A program made the position numbers and the translations under genes. Shown piece after piece: positions 1,960 through 28,596 of a stretch of 37,343 nt of DNA. This stretch comes from Candidatus Woesearchaeota archaeon (GTDB lineage: Archaea > Nanobdellota > Nanobdellia > Woesearchaeales > GW2011-AR9). How positions within the stretch are numbered: the stretch's first letter is position 1; the number at the start of each line of letters is the position of its first letter. The stretch is taken from positions 1 to 37,343 of the forward strand of contig JAAOXZ010000079.1 of the NCBI GenBank assembly GCA_018221085.1, given 5' to 3'. Below the pieces are notes generated by a model that ran no database searches, was not told the DNA's origin, and saw only the letters and a program-made list of their open reading frames with translations.

Positions 1960-2661
1960 ATGCTTAAAATACAACTACATATCCATAGTAAAGAAGATCC
2001 CCGCGATACTCTTTCTTGTACTGCCAAAGATTTAATTGATGAAGCCGTAGAACAGAAATTTGATGTTATGGCCTTTACTTGCCATAATAAAGTTATCCAC
2101 ACCCCAGAATTGGAACAATATGCTAAAAGTAAAAATATTCTTTTAATTTCTGGAGTAGAAAGAAATATTGAAAGAAAAGAAGTTTTATTATACAATATTA
2201 CTGAAGAAGAATCCCAATCTTTAACCACCTTCCAAGAATTAATCGATTTCAAAAAGAAGCAACAACAACAGAATAAACCTTTTTTAGTCATCGCTCCTCA
2301 TCCGTTTTACTTTGGTCCGCCGTGTTTGAAAAAAAAAGTCATTGAATATTTAGACCTATTTGATGCCTGGGAGTATTCTTTTTTTCACACTAAATGGATT
2401 AACCCCAATAAAAAAATGGCGGAATTGGCTCAAGAACACCACAAACCAGTTATTGGTAATTCTGATGTCCATAAAGCCCACACTTTAGAAAGAACTTACT
2501 CTTTACTGGATTCAGAAAAGAATATTCCGGCTATTTTTCAAGCCATTAAAGATGATAAAATAGAGATTAAAACCACTCCCCTTTCTTTTATTTCTTTTGC
2601 TAAACTATTTGTAGTGGTATCAATTACCATAATTAAACGCTGGCTCAAAAAAGAATATTAA
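1960..2661 (+). CDS. PHP-domain metal-dependent phosphoesterase with C-terminal hydrophobic segment
   Basis: N-terminal LHIHS (HxH) and C-terminal GNSDVH motifs typical of PHP/histidinol-phosphatase-like domains; TATA box 21 nt upstream. Confidence 0.7.
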   Translation: MLKIQLHIHSKEDPRDTLSCTAKDLIDEAVEQKFDVMAFTCHNKVIHTPELEQYAKSKNILLISGVERNIERKEVLLYNITEEESQSLTTFQELIDFKKKQQQQNKPFLVIAPHPFYFGPPCLKKKVIEYLDLFDAWEYSFFHTKWINPNKKMAELAQEHHKPVIGNSDVHKAHTLERTYSLLDSEKNIPAIFQAIKDDKIEIKTTPLSFISFAKLFVVVSITIIKRWLKKEY

Positions 2662-2723
2662 ACGTTGCGGAATTCTTGAATACCCACAACTCTTTTAAAA
2701 CTCACTCTTATTTCAACAAAAAC

Positions 2724-3161
2724 ATGGAACACAAAAAACCATATACCAAACCAAGAATAGAAACTCCTCAACTCTTTACATTGACTGCGTCACAAAGTGA
2801 ATTAGCTAACATTGAATATTGTGCCTTTTTAGTTGGAGCCAAAACCGTCGGTCGCACAACTAGGCATAAACTGGGTAGCACGGATTACAAAACAACATTT
2901 CCTATCCACCTTATTGATTTTACATCTCACCTTTGTGGAGGATTTGAGGAGTCATTAGAGGATCCAACTGAAATCTTACCTGATAATGCTGCTGAAATAA
3001 CAGATGGGACATTTAAAGGTATTGAAGTATATATTATTGGTGATAAGAGAACAACAATGGAACAATATTACCATCTACGTCAGTTAATCCCCTTTGAAAT
3101 AAAAATGTTTCCTCGTCCTTTATTTACAAACGAATTACGTGAATTATGTGATTGTCTATAA
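2724..3161 (+). CDS. hypothetical protein
   Basis: The track ORF starts at TTG 2676. The internal ATG at 2724 lies 24 nt downstream of TTTTAAAA (2693..2700), matching the leaderless spacing seen elsewhere. Confidence 0.55.
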   Translation: MEHKKPYTKPRIETPQLFTLTASQSELANIEYCAFLVGAKTVGRTTRHKLGSTDYKTTFPIHLIDFTSHLCGGFEESLEDPTEILPDNAAEITDGTFKGIEVYIIGDKRTTMEQYYHLRQLIPFEIKMFPRPLFTNELRELCDCL

Positions 3162-3184
3162 CTGCTTAATTGCAAACCTAAAAG

Positions 3185-3192
3185 TTTATAAA
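3185..3192 (+). promoter_or_regulatory. TATA box, leaderless spacing
   Basis: TTTATAAA 22 nt before ATG 3215. Confidence 0.6.
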
Positions 3193-3214
3193 TTTCTGTC
3201 CTTTTATTTTAATC

Positions 3215-3832
3215 ATGCCTGCTATAGCAACTAAAGGAAAAAGAGTCCAAGTAGCTACTTATCGCGTTAAATACAAAGACGTTTTTGACATGAAAAAATT
3301 CTACGAAGATCTTCACGATTGGTTAGCTGAAAAAGGGTGGGCAGATTTAGCAGATCCCGGTAGCGACCATTATGAAACTTTTTACTTAGAACAAGTTAAT
3401 CCCGGAGGCTCTAAAGTAATAACTATCAAATGGCGTCCACAAAAAATACCGGAAAAAAATTCTTATTACCGTTATTGGATGGATGTCAATATTGTTTGTA
3501 TCGGATTGGTAAACGTAGATGTAGTTAAAGACGGCGTAAAGTTAAAAGTTAACAAAGGAGAAATGGAAATCACCATCACTGCTTATATGGATCTTGATTA
3601 TCGAGGAGAATGGTCTTCTCATCCCATTCTGAAATTTTTTAACAAAATGTTCCCCGACAGAATTTTCAATAAAGAGCTTTTTGGTGGACATCGAGATGAA
3701 CTTTACCGAGAATCGTATGAGTTACAAACCTTCATCAAGCAATGGTTCAAACTAAAAACATTCGCTCCTTATGCTGATAAAACCTCCTTTTACCCTTCTC
3801 ACGCCTGGCCCAGCCACTTAAAAGAGGAATAA
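3215..3832 (+). CDS. hypothetical protein (205 aa)
   Basis: Long ORF; TTTATAAA at 3185..3192, 22 nt upstream of the ATG; no family recognised. Confidence 0.6.
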   Translation: MPAIATKGKRVQVATYRVKYKDVFDMKKFYEDLHDWLAEKGWADLADPGSDHYETFYLEQVNPGGSKVITIKWRPQKIPEKNSYYRYWMDVNIVCIGLVNVDVVKDGVKLKVNKGEMEITITAYMDLDYRGEWSSHPILKFFNKMFPDRIFNKELFGGHRDELYRESYELQTFIKQWFKLKTFAPYADKTSFYPSHAWPSHLKEE

Positions 3833-3844
3833 AGGTATTCAACT

Positions 3845-4351
3845 ATGACTACTAAAGTAATCTTACCTCCAAATTATCTTGAAAATATTAATGGCAGGTT
3901 AATATTCTTAGCTGGACCCATACAAGGAGCTTACAATTGGCAAGAACAAGCAATTGAAACTCTACAAACTCTCGCTCCAGAATTATATGTTGCTTCTCCA
4001 AGAAGAAGAGAAATAATTAAGAAAGGAGAATTCACTATTGATATGTATAATGAGCAAGTTGATTGGGAAACATATCACTTAAGAAAAGCAGGAGAAAATG
4101 GGGCCATACTATTTTGGCTCACCAAAGAATCTGAACATATTTGTCGAAGAGCTTATGCACAAACTTCTAGATTTGAATTAGCGGAATGGAAAATAAGGCA
4201 CGAAAGAGATGGTTCAAATTTGGTTGTGGGTATTGAAGAAGGTTTTTCCGGAGCTAAATATATTCAAAGAAGATTATCTCAAGATTGTCCTGATGTCCCT
4301 ATTTGTTCTACGTTAGAAGAAACATGCAAAACAGCTATTTTAATTAGTTAA
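3845..4351 (+). CDS. nucleoside 2-deoxyribosyltransferase-like (SLOG-type) protein
   Basis: N-terminal LIFLAGPIQGAYNWQ..A string followed by SPRR and VDWE..L resembles the Nuc_deoxyri_tr2-like family; recognised by memory only. Confidence 0.5.
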   Translation: MTTKVILPPNYLENINGRLIFLAGPIQGAYNWQEQAIETLQTLAPELYVASPRRREIIKKGEFTIDMYNEQVDWETYHLRKAGENGAILFWLTKESEHICRRAYAQTSRFELAEWKIRHERDGSNLVVGIEEGFSGAKYIQRRLSQDCPDVPICSTLEETCKTAILIS

Positions 4352-4364
4352 TTTAAACAGAAAA

Positions 4365-4373
4365 ATTAATAAA
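4365..4373 (+). promoter_or_regulatory. TATA-like element for tRNA-Thr
   Basis: ATTAATAAA ~26 nt upstream of 4399. Confidence 0.5.
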
Positions 4374-4398
4374 GAAAATTCCTAATTCACTTCTTTAC

Positions 4399-4487
4399 GC
4401 CCCTGTAGCATAGTAGCTATTGCGGCAGACTTGTAATTAACAAATCAAGCAATCTGCAGGTCGAGGGTGCAAGTCCCTCCAGGGGCT
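4399..4487 (+). tRNA. tRNA-Thr(UGU) with 16-nt canonical (37/38) BHB intron 4436..4451; no encoded CCA
   Basis: Acceptor GCCCCTG/CAGGGGC, anticodon stem GCAGA/TCTGC, loop CTTGTAA, T stem GAGGG/CCCTC. The intron forms a 4-bp helix CTTG/CAAG flanked by 3-nt bulges TAA and CAA. TATA-like ATTAATAAA ~26 nt upstream. The T loop (TGCAAGT) and D loop are atypical. Confidence 0.75.
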
Positions 4488-4495
4488 GTTTCTTT

Positions 4496-4954
4496 TTAAA
4501 GAAATTTGGGTCGAAGGTATAATTCACAGAGACCCTCAAAGAGTTTTTGAGTGGCCACGTCATCAACTGGGTTTATAACAACTACCAGATAAGACGGGTG
4601 TGCTTTGGCTGCGGTCTGTTCCCCTCTCTGCTTTTCAACAAATTCAAAATGGTGATTGTTTTGGCCCCTACTTGCCGTTTCATCCGGAGGCAGATACATA
4701 TTTAAGTCATATTCTTGAGAAATTTTTTGTGCAGCTCTTACTTTCTTCTCTGATAATCCTTGTTCTCCGCCAACGGAGTACCATCCAGCATCATCCTGCG
4801 GTGGAACAGCGAATGTTAACTCATTATCTTCAATAGCCATAAATTTGAATCCATTTTCAGAAAATCCACTTTCTCTTAAAAATGCAGATAAAACTAAATC
4901 ACTTAACTCTCCCAGAGATTCTTTTGCTTTCATTACTTGTTGGATCAATTTCAT
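4496..4954 (-). CDS. hypothetical protein (152 aa)
   Basis: ORF with a TATA box (reverse strand TTTATATAAC) ~24 nt upstream; visibly more G+C-rich than neighbours. Confidence 0.6.
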   Translation of the reverse strand: MKLIQQVMKAKESLGELSDLVLSAFLRESGFSENGFKFMAIEDNELTFAVPPQDDAGWYSVGGEQGLSEKKVRAAQKISQEYDLNMYLPPDETASRGQNNHHFEFVEKQRGEQTAAKAHPSYLVVVINPVDDVATQKLFEGLCELYLRPKFL

Positions 4955-5060
4955 GTTTTTATCATTATTAGGGGAGTTATATAAAGGTTTTGGTAGACTT
5001 AATATTGGGAGTTATAATCAAAACCATTATAAATGGGAATTATTATTAGCTTAACATCAT

Positions 5061-5083
5061 ATTAACGAGGTAAAAATAAAATG
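5061..5083 (+). promoter_or_regulatory. 23-nt translation-initiation leader ATTAACGAGGTAAAAATAAAATG, identical copy at 5480..5502
   Basis: Exact repeat including the GAGGT SD and the ATG; related versions lie before 5783 and 28264 (CGAGGAATAATAAAATG / CGGAGGAATAATAAAAATG). Confidence 0.8.
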
Positions 5084-5479
5084 ACTTTAGAACAGGATAT
5101 TGAAGAAATAAAAAGGAAAGTAGGAAACTTAAGTAATAAAGACCACACTACAGAGAGAACCGGATTATATATTTTAGTTGCTACTGCTGCACTATTCTCA
5201 TACGGAGCGCAACAGACTAGTGACACGAATTATGATGCCCTTAAAGCCATGAAATTACAAATCGAAGCTATGAAACCACAGGTTCAAGTTGAAAATGTTA
5301 TTGGTTATGACGCACCAGAAAAGTTTTATGAGATTGATGGGCAAAGAGTTTACTTAGAGATTGATGGAAAGCCCGTTGGACAGTATGTCAAAGAAATAAA
5401 AACTGAGCAACCTATTGGCAAATTACCCGTAGAAAAACAAGATGCTCCTATTCGTGGAAGAGCAGAACGTTTAAGATAA
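5081..5479 (+). CDS. small single-pass membrane protein (coiled N-terminus, TM, IDG-motif C-terminal domain)
   Basis: TM segment GLYILVATAALFSYGA; C-terminal FYEIDGQRVYLEIDGKPV; GAGGT SD in a leader identical to that of the next gene. Confidence 0.65.
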   Translation: MTLEQDIEEIKRKVGNLSNKDHTTERTGLYILVATAALFSYGAQQTSDTNYDALKAMKLQIEAMKPQVQVENVIGYDAPEKFYEIDGQRVYLEIDGKPVGQYVKEIKTEQPIGKLPVEKQDAPIRGRAERLR

Positions 5480-5499
5480 ATTAACGAGGTAAAAATAAA

Positions 5500-5757
5500 A
5501 TGGATTATTCACAAAAAAGAGATGTAGTGGTATTGGGACTGGGAACTATGCTTGGTTTTGGTTTTGGTATAAACATTGGAGTTGTTATCCCCTATATAGA
5601 AGAGATTATTGTTCCTAATAACCTAGAACTTACCTGCCAAGAATTAAGTGAAAATAGTAAAGAAGTTAAAATTGACGGCACCCCCTACACATTAAAATGT
5701 GATGAGCAAGGTAGGCCCAGACTTTATGAAACTAAACCAGCAGAAAAACAAGAGTAA
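5500..5757 (+). CDS. small N-terminally anchored protein with 2-Cys ELTC..IDGTPY..KCD.QGRP domain
   Basis: N-terminal TM; paralog of 28264..28596; identical 23-nt leader/SD. Confidence 0.7.
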   Translation: MDYSQKRDVVVLGLGTMLGFGFGINIGVVIPYIEEIIVPNNLELTCQELSENSKEVKIDGTPYTLKCDEQGRPRLYETKPAEKQE

Positions 5758-5782
5758 CAAATAAAATTCGAGGAATAATAAA

Positions 5783-6148
5783 ATGACAGATAATTTAACA
5801 CCAATTGTACTCGCCAATAAGACGATTGGCTACAAAAACGAAACATTGCCACCTAATTTTAAGTATGATTTAATTTTCACGGTAAAAGTTAAACCAGGAG
5901 TTGAAATAGACGGAGAGTTAGTAGCAAGAGTTAATCAAATATGTCCCTCGCAATTTTTATTTGCAAAAGGCATGATCCTGGGATCCACATTACAAGGTTC
6001 TTATGAAACTGGTTTTGGCGTTAAATTAGAAAACAATACCGAAGGCAATTGGCAAGGTAATGCTGCGAAAGTTCCAACTGAGCTTGATGACATAGTAGAT
6101 CAAATTTATGTCGCTGACGGACCAGTAAAACGTCCAGAAAATTACTAG
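5783..6148 (+). CDS. hypothetical protein (121 aa, no TM)
   Basis: SD-led ORF in the same operon; its leader resembles that of 28264. Confidence 0.6.
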   Translation: MTDNLTPIVLANKTIGYKNETLPPNFKYDLIFTVKVKPGVEIDGELVARVNQICPSQFLFAKGMILGSTLQGSYETGFGVKLENNTEGNWQGNAAKVPTELDDIVDQIYVADGPVKRPENY

Positions 6149-6165
6149 AGGTAAAGAAATTAAAA

Positions 6166-6855
6166 ATGGAAAAACTATATGAAGAATGTCAACGGATAGA
6201 AGCCGAAGCGGATGCTGATATTGAAGGTTTTAATAGAGTTCTTGAAGACCTTGAAGCAGTAGATGGTCTTGATATTGCTTTGTTAGAAGATGAAGGCGTA
6301 CCTGATTTCTTTGCTGCAGATTTTGGAACCTCTGAAAACGATGGACAAGATAGACCAAAGAAACCAGTTCTATATAGTATTATCTACAACATTGAAAAAA
6401 CAGTAAAAGAATTTGTTTTTGCCTTACCAGTAGCTCTACACTATCTCGGCATATATAGGGCATCTGATTATGCCTTAAATAACACTCCTCATCGCTCTCC
6501 AAATAAAATAAAAAAAACCTTAGGCTCAATTGTATTGGCTGGAACTATGGCTTTAGGTATGTACTCTGTCCAAGATACTAAAACTCAAAATGATGAAAAT
6601 GCGGTTGCTCATGCCGAAGGAGAATATGCTGCCGCACAAATTAAGAAAAAATCTATTGAAATTCTAGCTGAAGCTGACGCTGAAAAGTACAAAATCCTAG
6701 AAAAAGCTCTTAATCCTAAAACTCCTGCAGAAAGAAAAGAAGTTAGACAATTATTCAATAATTTAGTAAAATATATTGATCTTAGAGAAAGATCTGGAGA
6801 TGTAGTTTGGATGCTTGATGGAGAAAAACCAATTTCTACTTATCGACCTAAATAA
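6166..6855 (+). CDS. membrane protein with acidic (E/V)LYEECQRIEAEADA N-terminal domain
   Basis: Paralog of 11610..12596 over the N-terminal ~50 aa; hydrophobic segments mid-protein; SD AGAGGT. Confidence 0.65.
   Translation: MEKLYEECQRIEAEADADIEGFNRVLEDLEAVDGLDIALLEDEGVPDFFAADFGTSENDGQDRPKKPVLYSIIYNIEKTVKEFVFALPVALHYLGIYRASDYALNNTPHRSPNKIKKTLGSIVLAGTMALGMYSVQDTKTQNDENAVAHAEGEYAAAQIKKKSIEILAEADAEKYKILEKALNPKTPAERKEVRQLFNNLVKYIDLRERSGDVVWMLDGEKPISTYRPK
6175..6218 (+). repeat. 44-nt 5' coding block, 43/44 identical to 11619..11662
   Basis: CTATATGAAGA(A/G)TGTCAACGGATAGAAGCCGAAGCGGATGCTGA in both genes; identity falls off sharply on both sides. Confidence 0.9.
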
Positions 6856-6897
6856 AACAAAACCTTTTACCATGACTTTTGACGAAGAGAAATTAAA

Positions 6898-7209
6898 ATG
6901 ACCACTAATTATGAAATGTTATTGCTTGGCGACCTTGTCCATAATGTATGTGAACAAGGGGGTATGTTAAACCATGTAGATCTTAGACCTTTAGCAGAAG
7001 AACTGGGTTTAGATTTAGATGAAATAATGCAAGAAATTATTCATATCTGCGATACTCAAAATTATAACGTTGGTTGCCATATGCATTGCACCAGAGTGAA
7101 TGTTATTCCCAAATACCAAAAAACAGGAGAGTTAGTTTTAAACAAGGACCACACCGAAGGATTGCTAAAAATCTTAGCTGTACACAAAGGAATCAGAAAA
7201 GATTACTAA
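6898..7209 (+). CDS. hypothetical Cys/His-containing protein (103 aa)
   Basis: Last ORF of the 5081..7209 same-strand cluster. Confidence 0.5.
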   Translation: MTTNYEMLLLGDLVHNVCEQGGMLNHVDLRPLAEELGLDLDEIMQEIIHICDTQNYNVGCHMHCTRVNVIPKYQKTGELVLNKDHTEGLLKILAVHKGIRKDY

Positions 7210-7289
7210 ACAAAACCAAAAACTTTAAAAGTATCCTCATGTTTACCATCAAAATAGATGATAGATGGAAAGTATTCTAGGTATATAAT

Positions 7290-7919
7290 ATGGAAGAACA
7301 ATTAAAAACAGGAACTACTACGGTTGGAATTGTCTGTAAAGATGGAGTTATCCTCGCTGCAGATAAAAGAGCTACTGCTGGTACTATGATAGTGGACAAA
7401 AGAGCAGAAAAAGTTCACTTAATTTCAGATGATGTTGCCGTAACTATTGCTGGAACTGTCTCCGATGCCCAATTATTAATCAAACTTATTCGAGCAGAAT
7501 TAAAATTAAAAGAAGTTAGAACTAGTAAAAGACCAACTATGAAAGAATCTGCTAATCTCTTAGGTGGATTGTTATACTCTAGTATCCGAAGAATGAGTAT
7601 GATTCCCGGTATTGCCCACTTTTTGATGGGAGGAAAAGACTATTTAGGTACGCATTTATATGATTTATTCCCCGATGGCAGTGTCACCAAAGTCAGAGAT
7701 TTTATTTCTTCCGGTTCCGGTTCAGTTTTCGCTTACGGAGTTTTAGAAAGTCATTACACTCCCGAAATAACTCTCGAAGAAGGAATACCTTTAGTTGTTA
7801 AAGCCGTAAATACTGCCTTACAAAGAGATTCTGCTTCTGGAAATGGTATTGATGTAGTTACCATCACCAATAAAGAAATTAAACTAGCACTACACAAAGA
7901 AGTCAATGTTCAATTATAA
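7290..7919 (+). CDS. psmB: proteasome subunit beta
   Basis: Short propeptide then the catalytic TTTVGIVCKDGVILAADKRAT string typical of archaeal 20S beta subunits. Confidence 0.95.
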   Translation: MEEQLKTGTTTVGIVCKDGVILAADKRATAGTMIVDKRAEKVHLISDDVAVTIAGTVSDAQLLIKLIRAELKLKEVRTSKRPTMKESANLLGGLLYSSIRRMSMIPGIAHFLMGGKDYLGTHLYDLFPDGSVTKVRDFISSGSGSVFAYGVLESHYTPEITLEEGIPLVVKAVNTALQRDSASGNGIDVVTITNKEIKLALHKEVNVQL

Positions 7920-7949
7920 ATGAACGTTTAGTTTTCAAACACTATTAAA

Positions 7950-9839
7950 ATGCCCGATATCTTAAAAGAAATTGTTAAAGTACTGCCCGGAGAAAAAATC
8001 TCTGAAGCGACCTTTGAAGCAGCTAATATAGTCCTTTATACTAAAGATAAAGACTTTTTTTTAGATAATCAAGGAAGCATCAGAAAAGCAGTTAGTGAAT
8101 TCAAAAAGAGAATTGAATTACGAGCCGATCCTTCCGTTTGTCTGGGGTTAGAAGAAGCAGAAAAAATCATTAAAGAAATTCTTCCCGTAGAATCAGAAAT
8201 CAAAGATATTATTTTTGATCCTCCACGTTCCGTAGTTATTATCCACGTAGAAAAACCAGGTTTAGCTATTGGAAAACGAGGCGATTTATTAAAACAAATC
8301 AAAGCTAAGACTTTTTGGGTTCCTTTTATCAAAAGAATGCCACCCATACAATCAGAAATCATTGAAGGTATTCGTTCAGTACTTTACCAAAATGCTGATT
8401 ATCGGAAAAAATTCCTTAATAAAACTGGTCATCGAATTTACGATGGTTGGTTGAGGGATAAAAAACACGAATGGATTAGAACTTCCTTCCTCGGGGCTGC
8501 TCGTCAAGTGGGTAGATCGTGTTTACTTTTACAAACCCCTGAATCTAGAGTCTTGCTTGACTGCGGTATTGATGTCAGTGAAGACAGTACTGAAAGTTAT
8601 CCTTATTTAGATGCTCCCGAATTTGATGTTAATGAATTGGACGCCGTCGTTATTAGTCATTCACATTTAGATCATTCTGGATTACTTCCTTATCTTTTTA
8701 AACTGGGCTATAAAGGACCGGTTTATTGTACTCTACCTACTAGAGACATTTCTTCTTTGTTACAACTAGATATGATTAAGATTCAACGTGGAGAGGGTAA
8801 AGAACCGATTTATACTAGCGAAGAAGTTAAAGCTACTGTATTGCATACCATCTGTTTAGATTACGAAGCTGTTACCGACATTACTCCAGACATTAGATTA
8901 ACTTTCTATAATGCCGGGCATATGTTGGGTAGTTCTATCTCTCACTTAAACATTGGTAATGGGTTGCATAACTTGGTTTACACTGGAGACATTAAATACA
9001 GTCGAACCAATTTGTTAGAGCCAGCCAACACCCAGTTTCCTCGAGTAGAAACTCTGATTATAGAAGCTACCTATGGTGGTAAAGATAATGTCATGGTGGA
9101 AACCGAAGCTGACCAATACATGGTTGATGTTATCAAAGATACTATTAAACGGAAAGGAAAAGTTCTGATGCCTGTTTTAGGTTCTGGAAGAGCTCAAGAA
9201 GTAATGATTATTATGGAAAGATTAATTAGAGAAAAACAAATTCCCGACATCCCAGTTTACATCGACGGTATGTTGTGGGACATCACTGCCATTCACACTG
9301 CCTATCCAGAATTTTTGAATCGTAATATCCGTCAACAAATATTTCATAAAGATAAGAATCCTTTTTTGTCACCGATTTTCAAAAGAGTCGGTTCACAGAA
9401 AGAAAGAAAGAAAATTATCTTAGAAGAAGGTTCTTGTTTAATCTTAGCCACTTCTGGAATGTTAACTGGTGGTCCTTCTGTAGAATATCTCAAAAATTTA
9501 GCAGAAGATAAAAGACACACTTTGATTTTTTCTTGTTATCAACCTCCAGGTTCATTGGGCCATCGTATTCGAGGTGGAGAAACCGAACTACCTTTCCGAG
9601 ATCAAGGTAAAACTCATATTCTTAACATCAAAATGGAAATACACAAAGTAGAAATTACTGGTCACTCAGATAGGAGACAATTAATGAATTATGTTAAAAG
9701 ATGTAATCCTTCTCCCAGAAAAGTGATTGTTAATCATGGTGAATCTTCTCGTTGTTTAGATTTAGCTAGTTCTATCCACAAACAGAACAGAATAGAAACT
9801 GTAGCACCTAAAAATCTAGAATGTGTGAGAATAAAGTAA
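7950..9839 (+). CDS. fttA: beta-CASP ribonuclease aCPSF1 (KH + metallo-beta-lactamase + beta-CASP; transcription termination factor FttA)
   Basis: ~630 aa; N-terminal KH-like region, VISHSHLDHSG metallo-beta-lactamase motif, C-terminal GHSD and NHGE motifs. Confidence 0.9.
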   Translation: MPDILKEIVKVLPGEKISEATFEAANIVLYTKDKDFFLDNQGSIRKAVSEFKKRIELRADPSVCLGLEEAEKIIKEILPVESEIKDIIFDPPRSVVIIHVEKPGLAIGKRGDLLKQIKAKTFWVPFIKRMPPIQSEIIEGIRSVLYQNADYRKKFLNKTGHRIYDGWLRDKKHEWIRTSFLGAARQVGRSCLLLQTPESRVLLDCGIDVSEDSTESYPYLDAPEFDVNELDAVVISHSHLDHSGLLPYLFKLGYKGPVYCTLPTRDISSLLQLDMIKIQRGEGKEPIYTSEEVKATVLHTICLDYEAVTDITPDIRLTFYNAGHMLGSSISHLNIGNGLHNLVYTGDIKYSRTNLLEPANTQFPRVETLIIEATYGGKDNVMVETEADQYMVDVIKDTIKRKGKVLMPVLGSGRAQEVMIIMERLIREKQIPDIPVYIDGMLWDITAIHTAYPEFLNRNIRQQIFHKDKNPFLSPIFKRVGSQKERKKIILEEGSCLILATSGMLTGGPSVEYLKNLAEDKRHTLIFSCYQPPGSLGHRIRGGETELPFRDQGKTHILNIKMEIHKVEITGHSDRRQLMNYVKRCNPSPRKVIVNHGESSRCLDLASSIHKQNRIETVAPKNLECVRIK

Positions 9840-11609: not shown

Positions 11610-12596
11610 ATGGTAGAACTATATGAAGAGTGTCAACGGATAGAAGCCGAAGCGGATGCTGAAACCGAAATAGCAAGAGATGTTGTTAGGGCTCTTGGTG
11701 AGATAAAAGGACTTGATACAGATATTGCTCGTTTAGAAGACATCGCTGTACCAGACCTTCTTGTTGAAACTTCTGAAAGAATTCCACCAGAACCTTTAGA
11801 ACAAATTGCGTTAGACAGTTCTACAGAACAATACGAACAACAACTAGACTCTTATGCCGAATTAAAAACCCATTACCAAGCTTTGCTGTCAGAAGAAGCT
11901 AGATTATCTAAAAAATACCGTAAAGAAATCAGAAAAGCCCAAAAATATGCTGCTAAACAGGTTAAAAAAGATAAAAAACACTTACAAAAGTTACTTTATC
12001 AATTTGAACAAGAAGATATAGTTGAAGGGAAGGAAGGCATCCAAGTTAAATTAAATGCCCTTTTCCAAGCCGAACAAAGACATTTCCTTAACTACTTAAT
12101 TGACGAACATCCCAATAAGTATCAACAAGATTTCCGCGATTGTTACAACCCCTTACTTCCTTTTCTTCATTTTTCAACTGCAGGAACAGTTCACCAAAAG
12201 ATAATCTTAGATGAACTACAACTCGATCCTCAAGAAAGAAAAGTATTTGAACAATACCAATCAGAAAAGGATGACTTGGAATTAATTATTAATAAAAAGT
12301 TAGGGAAACATCCAAAAAGGACAGATTTAAATCTTGGAGGAGCTACCTTAATTATAAGTGCGTTTTCTTCACTGGGATTTATAGGAATCGCCGCATTAGT
12401 TCATGAGATTTTTGAAATTACGCCTCCAGAACTAGTAATTCCTTTGGTATTTGGACCAGCACTTATGACTACACTAGGGATAGTTTCTGGAATGTATTTC
12501 TCAACCCACCCACAATACAAAGCTAGAAAACAAGCTAAGCAAGATCTAAACAAATTAAAAGCAGAAACCATCAAAATCTTAGCAAAAACCAGATAG
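11610..12596 (+). CDS. membrane protein with acidic ELYEECQRIEAEADA N-terminal domain, coiled-coil middle, C-terminal TM hairpin
   Basis: Paralog of 6166..6855; 44-nt near-identical 5' block; TTTATAAA 22 nt upstream. Confidence 0.7.
   Translation: MVELYEECQRIEAEADAETEIARDVVRALGEIKGLDTDIARLEDIAVPDLLVETSERIPPEPLEQIALDSSTEQYEQQLDSYAELKTHYQALLSEEARLSKKYRKEIRKAQKYAAKQVKKDKKHLQKLLYQFEQEDIVEGKEGIQVKLNALFQAEQRHFLNYLIDEHPNKYQQDFRDCYNPLLPFLHFSTAGTVHQKIILDELQLDPQERKVFEQYQSEKDDLELIINKKLGKHPKRTDLNLGGATLIISAFSSLGFIGIAALVHEIFEITPPELVIPLVFGPALMTTLGIVSGMYFSTHPQYKARKQAKQDLNKLKAETIKILAKTR
11619..11662 (+). repeat. partner of the 44-nt block at 6175..6218
   Basis: See 6175..6218. Confidence 0.9.
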
Positions 12597-17883: not shown

Positions 17884-18324
17884 TTATAATTTCCAATAAG
17901 ATTTTCCTTTATGTACTGCTTCGGTTATTCTATGAGCTGGAATAAAAATTTCCCGTTTTCCAGATTTATCTTTAACAATTAGACAATCGTTCTCAAAGTT
18001 CACAATTTTTCCTGCCGGAACAGAAATCTGTTTCTTTTTTACTTTATCGTAATATTTAATATGGAATTCATGTTTTTGAGGATGATTTTTAACCTTATGA
18101 ACAATCTTCCGGACTGCTTTTTCTAAACTGCCGGAAGGATCAAATTCCTTGATAATTAATCCTGAAAAAGTTAGTATGGCAAAACCGACAAACAATGCTA
18201 CCCATTCATTACCTAAGTAAGGTATTTCATAAAGTCCTTCCCATAACCCTTTCCAGATAAAGATGATACCTATCGCTACCAATAACGACCAAATAAAATG
18301 TCTATCTTGTTCTCTTAAAAACAA
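17884..18324 (-). CDS. 2-TM membrane protein with C-terminal DUF504 (MJ1316-like) domain (TTG start)
   Basis: Same architecture: W.G.WEGL membrane domain, then FHIKYYDKVKKK...IVNFENDCLIVKDK..REIFIPAHRITEAVHKGKSYW. Confidence 0.6.
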   Translation of the reverse strand: MFLREQDRHFIWSLLVAIGIIFIWKGLWEGLYEIPYLGNEWVALFVGFAILTFSGLIIKEFDPSGSLEKAVRKIVHKVKNHPQKHEFHIKYYDKVKKKQISVPAGKIVNFENDCLIVKDKSGKREIFIPAHRITEAVHKGKSYWKL

Positions 18325-18423
18325 TGTATCACCTTTTTACTCAGTATCTATTTTTCTAACATATAAATATCTTTCTGAAATAAAAATAGAATATTTTAAA
18401 AACAAATTAAATATCCTTTAAGT

Positions 18424-28263: not shown

Positions 28264-28596
28264 ATGGCATTTAGTGGATTTAGTTATGTAATGGGATTTT
28301 TGTTTGGAATGGTAACTATGCCCATAACCGAGTATTGTACAGAAAAAACATCAGAACCAAGGGAAGTTCAACCAAATCAATTAGAACTCACTTGTGAAGA
28401 GTTAGGTAGTGAAGGAAAAGAAGTAACAATTGACGGCACACCCTATGCCTTCTTAAAATGTGATGACCAAGGTAGACCCGTGCTTACACTTTATGAAAGC
28501 AAATCTGCCGAAGTAACTCCAGAATACGGAATGTTACCTGGAGCTCTTTCCGAAAACATCCTTAAAGGTTACGATTCAGACGGTGGAATACAATGA
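28264..28596 (+). CDS. small N-terminally anchored protein with 2-Cys ELTC..IDGTPY..KCD.QGRP domain (paralog of 5500..5757)
   Basis: The ATG at 28264 is preceded by a GGAGG SD. The TATA box at 28171..28178 makes the track GTG start at 28183 unlikely. Confidence 0.65.
   Translation: MAFSGFSYVMGFLFGMVTMPITEYCTEKTSEPREVQPNQLELTCEELGSEGKEVTIDGTPYAFLKCDDQGRPVLTLYESKSAEVTPEYGMLPGALSENILKGYDSDGGIQ

Follow-up and report, generated by a model that had tools for sequence, protein, structure and literature searches.

The locus described here can be set beside four kinds of described system: the SPFH/Band-7 proteins (stomatin, prohibitin, flotillin, as well as HflK/C; PF01145), the stomatin-NfeD operons, the genomic islands adjacent to tRNA genes, and the lineage-specific hypothetical protein families of DPANN archaea. 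Surveys of lineage-specific hypothetical protein families reportedly exist. For stomatin, a report (PMC5456319) gives the coiled-coil domain as necessary for oligomerization. Our locus is a block of five small genes, p1 to p5, in a stretch of 37,343 nucleotides (nt), hereafter the window, which is contig C50 (GenBank JAAOXZ010000079.1) of the archaeal metagenome-assembled genome (MAG) G000. This genome comprises 0.85 Mb in 92 contigs and is ~90% complete; relatives in public collections carry the labels Woesearchaeota or Nanoarchaeia. We favor, with a probability of about one half, the reading of the block as a native accessory operon, specific to the genus, in a variable slot between the tRNA-Thr(UGU) gene and psmB-aCPSF1, made of one older gene and four young ones, with products acting at the cell envelope. 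The locus reveals no new machine, mobile element, or defense system, and its only notable element is p4, a chimera that carries the tail of an SPFH protein.

Organization and initiation signals of the block

The genes and signals of the block are as follows.

5027..5034, plus strand: TATA box TTATAAAT, the operon promoter as read from the sequence
5061..5083, plus strand: leader copy 1, ATTAACGAGGTAAAAATAAAATG, with the Shine-Dalgarno (SD) motif GAGG, a 10-nt spacer, and the ATG of p1
5081..5479, plus strand: p1, 132 amino acids (aa)
5480..5502, plus strand: leader copy 2, the same 23 nt as copy 1, with the ATG of p2 at its end
5500..5757, plus strand: p2, 85 aa
5783..6148, plus strand: p3, 121 aa
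6166..6855, plus strand: p4, 229 aa
6898..7209, plus strand: p5, 103 aa

A first-pass annotation of the same DNA had described five close open reading frames (ORFs) on one strand behind one TATA box, and this layout was recovered, with gaps of 20, 25, 17, and 42 nt from p1 to p5. The single strand, the gaps of 17 to 42 nt, and the single TATA box are what a single operon would have, and we infer that p1 to p5 are co-transcribed. A consensus scan found no plus-strand terminator inside the block, which is weak evidence, because the patterns used are bacterial. Judging from the usual archaeal spacing between TATA box and start, transcription would begin near 5056-5062, giving a 5' untranslated region (UTR) of ~20 nt that carries the SD motif.

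The motif GAGG is found 9 to 14 nt before the ATG of p1 to p4, while p5 has GAAGAG only, so that the earlier claim of a GAGG-type SD for each gene holds for four of the five. Across the genome, an SD-like tetramer was seen for ~27% of 869 genes, and among first genes 49% carry a TATA-like box at leaderless distance. The neighboring first genes (starting at 3215, 10846, 11610, and, on the minus strand, 4954) look leaderless, as had been noted, since TTTATAAA-type boxes stand ~25 nt upstream of them. The leaders of p1 and p2 are indeed identical over 23 nt, and no other site in the 0.85-Mb genome matches them with fewer than five mismatches; around them, the similarity reaches 33 nt at 91%. The 17-nt core of this leader, GAGGTAAAAATAAAATG, also precedes three other genes with one mismatch and is close to a generic leader of the genome. 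A further likeness reported earlier, between the leader of p3 and that of a p2 paralog at 28264, could be seen as well. None of the five proteins had a significant match in Pfam, PHROGs, NCBIfam, or PADLOC, in agreement with the earlier statement that none fits a recognized family. As for anti-phage defense, no PADLOC model was matched by p1 to p5 at an E value below 0.02.

p4 is a chimera of resident pieces

Searches of p4 against its own genome (tblastn and blastn) resolved it into three pieces of different origin, given here with the relative in the window.

6166..6315, plus strand: N-terminal acidic module (aa 1 to 50), common to two genus-specific proteins of ~329 aa, at 56-57% aa identity
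6503..6561, plus strand: hydrophobic segment KKTLGSIVLAGTMALG, 81-85% identical at the nt level to sequences with which small secreted proteins of contigs C41 and C75 begin
6600..6857, plus strand: C-terminal 84 aa, a copy of the post-SPFH coiled coil and C terminus of the Band-7/SPFH protein that the genome itself encodes (contig C63, 13754-14011, minus strand)
11610..12596, plus strand: one of the ~329-aa proteins (328 aa), with a coiled coil and two C-terminal transmembrane segments; common with p4 over the first 50-52 aa only

The second ~329-aa protein, encoded on contig C47 (18248-19237), is likewise built with a long coiled coil and, at the C terminus, two transmembrane segments. These two proteins are 57% identical to each other, and a search of 24 genomes from the same family as G000 found no relatives of them. 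The paralogy between p4 and the 11610..12596 product that had been proposed is therefore real for the first 50-52 aa (56% identity) and does not extend to the rest of the protein. In the DNA, 6166-6218 and 11610-11662 are 94% identical over 53 nt, with codons 4-17 of p4 identical to those of the 11610 gene, which lies 5.4 kb downstream. Codons 19-43 are nearer to the C47 copy (18248-18376) than to the 11610 copy. Because the two sets of codons point to different copies, a gene conversion mosaic is suggested among p4, the 11610 gene, and the C47 copy, which share the N-terminal module only.

The internal hydrophobic segment of p4 resembles the N-terminal lipobox-type signal peptides of the small secreted proteins of C41 and C75. 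Very similar signal peptides of this type (KTLxxxxLAGxMALGxC) occur in several of these proteins, encoded at C41 464-778 and C75 4087-4635, 5077-5496, and 5513-6010.

The C-terminal piece and the 3' end of the C63 gene are identical at 82% (nt) and 83% (aa). The product of that gene, P0002, and an independent protein of 354 aa, P0003, both pass the Pfam Band_7/SPFH cut-off, and p4 aligns to them only after the Band_7 domain (41% identity to the P0003 tail; pairwise E = 6e-25). The tail of p4 is thus homologous to the coiled coil and tail of bona fide SPFH/Band-7 members. The globular SPFH domain was not detected, as hmmscan gave no Pfam match of p4 to Band_7 even at E values up to 1. A candidate remnant of this domain at aa 73-106, a single BLASTP segment against P0003 with an E value of 0.31, was treated as not significant. 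Since p4 has no SPFH domain, an N terminus from an unrelated family, and a hydrophobic segment like a signal peptide, we consider it a carrier of an SPFH tail that does not itself belong to the family. Across the 84 codons in common, the rate of synonymous substitution (dS) is 0.78 and that of nonsynonymous substitution (dN) 0.10, and the ratio dN/dS of 0.13 indicates that the tail is kept by purifying selection.

Misassembly as the source of the chimera was considered and rejected. The similar segments are 75-94% identical and not 100%, which makes a repeat collapse unlikely, and an independent Logan contig (6453-6651) runs across the junction at 6600. The Logan graph has a branch at the 44-nt island ending at 6218, a loose end departing from p4 beyond that position; this join is bridged only by a 138-nt contig (6189-6326) that has 30 nt on one side, and it rests mainly on the original assembly. 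No p4 was found in related genomes (among 24 to 60 genomes).

A gene put together in this way can also be read in another manner, which is the main rival of the accessory-operon reading. The slot may simply gather duplicated fragments and young ORFs on the p1 transcript, some of them dispensable or being lost, with no complex and no joint function. The three unrelated sources of p4 and the translation-initiation region copied in front of p2 speak for such a process, to which the clear purifying selection on the p4 tail (dN/dS of 0.13), the five intact frames with native codon usage, and the GAGG leader kept in four of the five genes are opposed. We regard it as possible, and as clearly less probable than an accessory operon.

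p1 is the one member with a wider family

A search of 5.8e9 proteins returned 15 homologs of p1, of 79-105 aa, with E values from 1.5e-14 to 1.2e-3. Those to which the source gives a name are from Nanoarchaeia or Nanoarchaeota; one hit of the family is in a bin labeled Methanosarcinales. The family has a C-terminal motif, ENVIGxEAPEKFYEIxGQRVYLEIDGKPVExYF, with 11 invariant columns (alignment A2), preceded in every member by a variable region with a single hydrophobic segment. All 11 invariant residues and one hydrophobic segment (aa 29-43) are present in p1, which places it in the family as defined by the motif ENVIGxxxPEKFYEIxGxRVYLEIDGKPV. In roughly half of the members listed, a cysteine follows within a few residues of the hydrophobic segment, giving it a lipobox-like look. 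Members occur in 7 of 40 genomes from the same GTDB family and at nine loci among GTDB species representatives; a pattern scan with the p1 alignment found no relatives in IMG/VR. By its alignment, then, p1 is a member of an unannotated, patchily distributed family of small Woesearchaeota/Nanoarchaeia proteins with one predicted anchor and a conserved 35-residue C-terminal mini-domain.

Homologs of p1 were located at 15 further genomic loci, whose neighbors are all different, and no relative of p2 to p5 was found beside any of them. The co-occurrence of the five families outside this genome, which would have tied them together, was thus not found. At one of these loci (L013), a p1 homolog, three unrelated genes, psmB, and aCPSF1 follow in that order. 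At another (L016), a tandem pair (2408-3406) of members of a 205-aa family, which is also represented upstream of the tRNA in the window, lies 3 kb from the p1 homolog.

Two proposed relationships of p1 were rejected. A weak PDB profile match to SpoIIQ (E = 0.4), by which the motif resembled the C-terminal half of M23/LytM domains (PF01551), was the lead for an M23 origin of the motif; aligned by hhalign with nine M23 domains from related genomes, A2 gave a probability of 0.15%, and none of the 16 members of the family had a Pfam M23 match. As an aside, 12 of 21 searched genomes have one or two PF01551 proteins and none was found in G000, itself one of the 21, which does not show absence because this genome is only ~90% complete. 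The second relationship, an "IDG repeat" of p1 said to be related to p2, came down to a 9-residue IDG(K/T)P motif: BLASTP gave an E value of 0.54, and hhalign of A2 with A5 aligned 9 columns only, with a probability of 0.7%.

p2, p3, and p5 have few relatives

p2 has an N-terminal transmembrane anchor by hydropathy (aa 12-30) and a short acidic C-terminal part. Its proposed paralog is confirmed:

28264..28596, plus strand: p2 paralog, 110 aa, 49% identical to p2 (E = 1e-20), with leader GAGGAATAATAAA

A cysteine pair in the C-terminal part of p2 is conserved in this paralog. Neither 40 genomes of the same family nor a pattern scan over all GTDB species yielded another relative, so that the in-genome paralog is the only one known from these searches.

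An exhaustive phmmer search of 1.84e9 representatives gave p3 one credible homolog, P0024 (129 aa), with an E value of 1.1e-4 and 31% identity over 116 aa; none was found in 60 related genomes. The AlphaFold2 (AF2) model of p3, of low confidence (predicted local distance difference test [pLDDT] of 57), has a ferredoxin-like beta-alpha-beta-beta-alpha-beta topology, and matched generic ferredoxin-like alpha+beta sandwiches only (Z of 7.1 at most). For p5, the one homolog, P0021, is 63% identical over 80 aa and is encoded on a 20-kb Joint Genome Institute (JGI) contig; no relative was found in 40-60 related genomes. Its AF2 model (pLDDT of 69) is mostly helical and had no fold match (Foldseek E > 0.9; VIA Z of 4.6 at most). 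Pattern scans for p3 and p5 found nothing in all GTDB species representatives, and the IMG/VR scans, which covered p1, p3, and p5, found no relatives either. Guesses of a dUTPase-like or winged-helix fold for p3 and p5, made from reading the sequences, are not supported by these models, in which p3 is ferredoxin-like and p5 helical and unmatched. Hydropathy revealed no hydrophobic segment, signal, or anchor in either protein, and both are predicted to be soluble.

The first-pass description of the products as lineage-specific holds, as p2 to p5 were not found in 40-60 related genomes. Their description as mostly membrane-anchored stands in part: p2 alone passes the standard hydropathy threshold, p1 and p4 have one hydrophobic segment of 15-17 residues each, and p3 and p5 have none. 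These distributions bear on the view of the slot as a mere collecting place for fragments and young ORFs. Outside this genome, four of the five families have no members, bar one stray homolog each for p3 and p5, and the families do not co-occur elsewhere, as that view would have it; the 63% identity of p5 to its homolog over 80 aa and the conservation of p3 over 116 aa speak for genes that are maintained.

They bear equally on the proposal that the five proteins form one lineage-specific cell-surface complex for the interaction of an episymbiotic DPANN cell with its host. The operon layout, the anchored proteins with small C-terminal parts (p1 and p2), the cysteine pair conserved in p2 and its paralog, which would fit an extracellular disulfide, and the small genome (0.85 Mb) with relatives labeled Woesearchaeota/Nanoarchaeia are all compatible with it. 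An envelope location is indeed plausible for p1, p2, and p4, and to this extent the earlier idea of a membrane or surface complex survives; the complex itself is weakened by the lack of co-occurrence in other genomes and of any compositional difference. Moreover, p3 and p5 are without signal or anchor, Pfam and NCBIfam searches detected no adhesin, pilin, or secretion domain, and nothing in the data on the locus links it to a host. We consider such a complex quite improbable.

The block occupies a variable slot

The surroundings of the block are as follows.

3215-3832: protein of 205 aa without known function, upstream of the tRNA, from a multi-copy family with paralogs on contigs C78 and C41
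4399..4487, plus strand: tRNA-Thr(UGU), with a 16-nt intron at 37/38 (ARAGORN with introns allowed), the conserved left anchor of the slot
4496..4954, minus strand: 152-aa ORFan, divergent from the operon and inside the slot
7290..7919, plus strand: psmB, proteasome beta subunit (Pfam), the conserved right anchor of the slot
7950-9839: aCPSF1/FttA, directly after psmB, 629 aa in this genome

The position between an intron-containing tRNA-Thr and psmB, as first described, was recovered with ARAGORN and Pfam. Run without the intron option, ARAGORN calls a tRNA-Asn(att) at 4399-4487; with introns, it gives a clean tRNA-Thr(UGU). Of 24 genomes of the same family, 23 have a psmB with 72-83% identity; in three of them tRNA-Thr(UGU) also lies upstream of this gene, and the intervening content differs. 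The distance from the tRNA to psmB is 520 nt in G023, where no long gene intervenes; two unrelated genes fill the slot in G009 and four in G013. A homolog of the 205-aa protein, 40% identical, sits beside tRNA-Thr in the same position in G009 (L062 4242-4901), across the tRNA from the slot, and the synteny with that genome therefore holds up to the tRNA. On the other side, the region upstream of psmB (7218-7289) is similar to that of G023 (L052 ~5960-6043), with a CTTTAAAA (TTTAAAA) box followed by a GATAGATG-containing stretch. This likeness places the end of the variable slot near 7215 and suggests a conserved psmB promoter with a 5' UTR of ~55 nt.

Two side observations concern the related loci. 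A small ORF ending in ...D(F/Y)PVHEKYTKEEPVKE lies just downstream of tRNA-Thr at L052 ~5560-5720 (G023) and L053 4524-4727 (G013) and seems conserved; none was seen in the window. The aCPSF1/FttA homolog of one Woesearchaeota MAG (L013 8445-11888) has 1,147 aa compared with 629 aa here; its match falls into two parts, 1-371 and 858-1147, a split that hints at an inserted stretch of ~490 aa, perhaps an intein.

The divergent 152-aa ORFan has its own TATA box ~25 nt upstream and for this reason looks leaderless. It had no match in Pfam, PHROGs, NCBIfam, or PADLOC and no paralog in its own genome; its codon usage is native, and its annotated frame is the best-scoring one.

That slot contents differ in every relative examined also suits the mere accumulation of fragments, the main rival named above. 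In addition, a variable slot beside a tRNA gene, filled with small ORFs without known function, recalls a virus or plasmid remnant integrated next to tRNA-Thr, as the first-pass annotation had suggested. That annotation had also described the block and the divergent gene as richer in G+C than their surroundings, which the measurements contradict: the G+C content is 0.349 in the block, 0.351 in the genome, and 0.343 in the window. Compared with 929 genes of the genome, the six genes (p1 to p5 and the 152-aa ORFan) have G+C z-scores of -0.12 to +1.2, the G+C content of third codon positions (GC3) is not raised, and codon-usage scores fall between the 22nd and the 94th percentile. For every gene of the six, the annotated frame far outscores the other five frames. 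These frame scores and percentiles indicate that p1 to p5 are real coding sequences with native usage, and neither G+C content nor codon usage differs from the genome.

Nor were other traces of a mobile element found. A repeat search of 4300-7400 with 9-nt seeds showed no direct repeat of the tRNA 3' part (att) involving 4399-4495, and the ORFs of 2676-9839 had no integrase or recombinase match in Pfam, PHROGs, or NCBIfam. The block genes had no significant PHROG match, and p1, p3, and p5 are without IMG/VR relatives. Furthermore, p2 and p4 derive from chromosomal genes of the same genome, and the homologs of p1 lie in varied chromosomal contexts. An integrated virus or plasmid is thus unsupported, and we judge it very unlikely.

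A native accessory operon as the favored reading

Four of the five genes are nearly without relatives, and one is stitched together from pieces of its own genome; this is why we see here an ordinary, fast-changing accessory region and not a virus remnant or a conserved surface machine. Both of these are less likely than the accessory operon and than the mere gathering of fragments and young ORFs.

In a native accessory operon, p1 would be the older gene of the slot, while p2 (an in-genome duplicate), p3, p4, and p5 would be young. p4 would have been assembled from the N-terminal module of the ~329-aa family, a lipoprotein-signal-like segment, and the SPFH coiled-coil tail. The products are probably associated with the envelope. 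p1 and p2 would each use one hydrophobic helix as an anchor and expose their short acidic C-terminal parts outside the cell. p4 would be membrane-anchored as well, and its conserved coiled-coil tail, the region that stomatin reportedly requires to oligomerize (PMC5456319), may dock onto, or co-assemble with, the oligomer of the resident SPFH scaffold; such docking would bring to the scaffold the N-terminal module that p4 shares with two tail-anchored proteins. p3 and p5 would be soluble partners.

A more specific version takes p4 for a "tail-only" SPFH paralog that has lost the SPFH domain, retains the oligomerizing coiled coil under selection, and inserts into or caps the resident scaffold, coupling it to the N-terminal module, the operon being a genus-specific SPFH-associated envelope module made from recombined resident fragments. 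We hold this version to be unlikely; if true, it would show domain shuffling giving rise to a new gene in an archaeal genome that is strongly reduced.

Several points weigh against the accessory operon with envelope products. No genome other than this one was found to have the five families together, and no comparative evidence ties them into one machine. The hydrophobic segments of p1 and p4, with 15-17 residues, are below the standard hydropathy threshold of 19 residues, and confidence in the structure models is low to medium for p3 and p5. The resident SPFH gene is at the end of contig C63 with its 5' (N-terminal) part unassembled, so that the partner of p4 is known only as a fragment. The sole public run that contains the locus is a sediment metagenome of low depth (contigs of ~6x), probably DNA and probably the source sample, and co-transcription is accordingly deduced from the gene layout. 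Finally, the roles of all five proteins are predictions. Apart from these points, an ESM Atlas search with the homolog P0007 gave only a low-confidence model (pLDDT of 0.44) and unusable matches.

If the reading as an accessory operon is true, the locus is a small, clear example of the making of new genes in a reduced DPANN genome: a small anchored protein was duplicated, a translation-initiation region was copied, and fragments of three resident genes were fused and then kept by selection. For annotation, we propose that the products be called hypothetical envelope-associated proteins, with p4 bearing the label "SPFH C-terminal-tail-containing protein (no SPFH domain)."

Comparison with known systems

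The stomatin-NfeD operons resemble the block in having an SPFH-related gene together with small membrane proteins. They differ from it in that no product of the block has an NfeD or OB-fold match in Pfam or NCBIfam, and in that the SPFH-related gene here is a tail fragment, the genuine SPFH gene being on another contig. The genomic islands adjacent to tRNA genes are similar in position, since the block is flanked by conserved anchors, one of them the tRNA gene next to it, and what fills the slot changes from one related genus to another. Unlike these islands, it has no integrase, att repeats, compositional signature, or mobile-element genes, and at least two of its genes were made from resident genes and not imported.

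The likeness to SPFH/Band-7 proteins is confined to p4, whose last 84 aa match their C-terminal coiled coil and terminus. The rest of p4 is unlike them, as there is no SPFH domain, the N terminus comes from an unrelated family, and the hydrophobic segment is like a lipoprotein signal. With the lineage-specific hypothetical families of DPANN archaea, the block shares p1, whose family is small, unannotated, and patchily distributed in MAGs labeled Woesearchaeota/Nanoarchaeia (one bin being labeled Methanosarcinales). With its very strongly conserved 35-residue motif, the p1 family merits a family definition, and p2 to p5 are narrower than p1, at the level of the genus.

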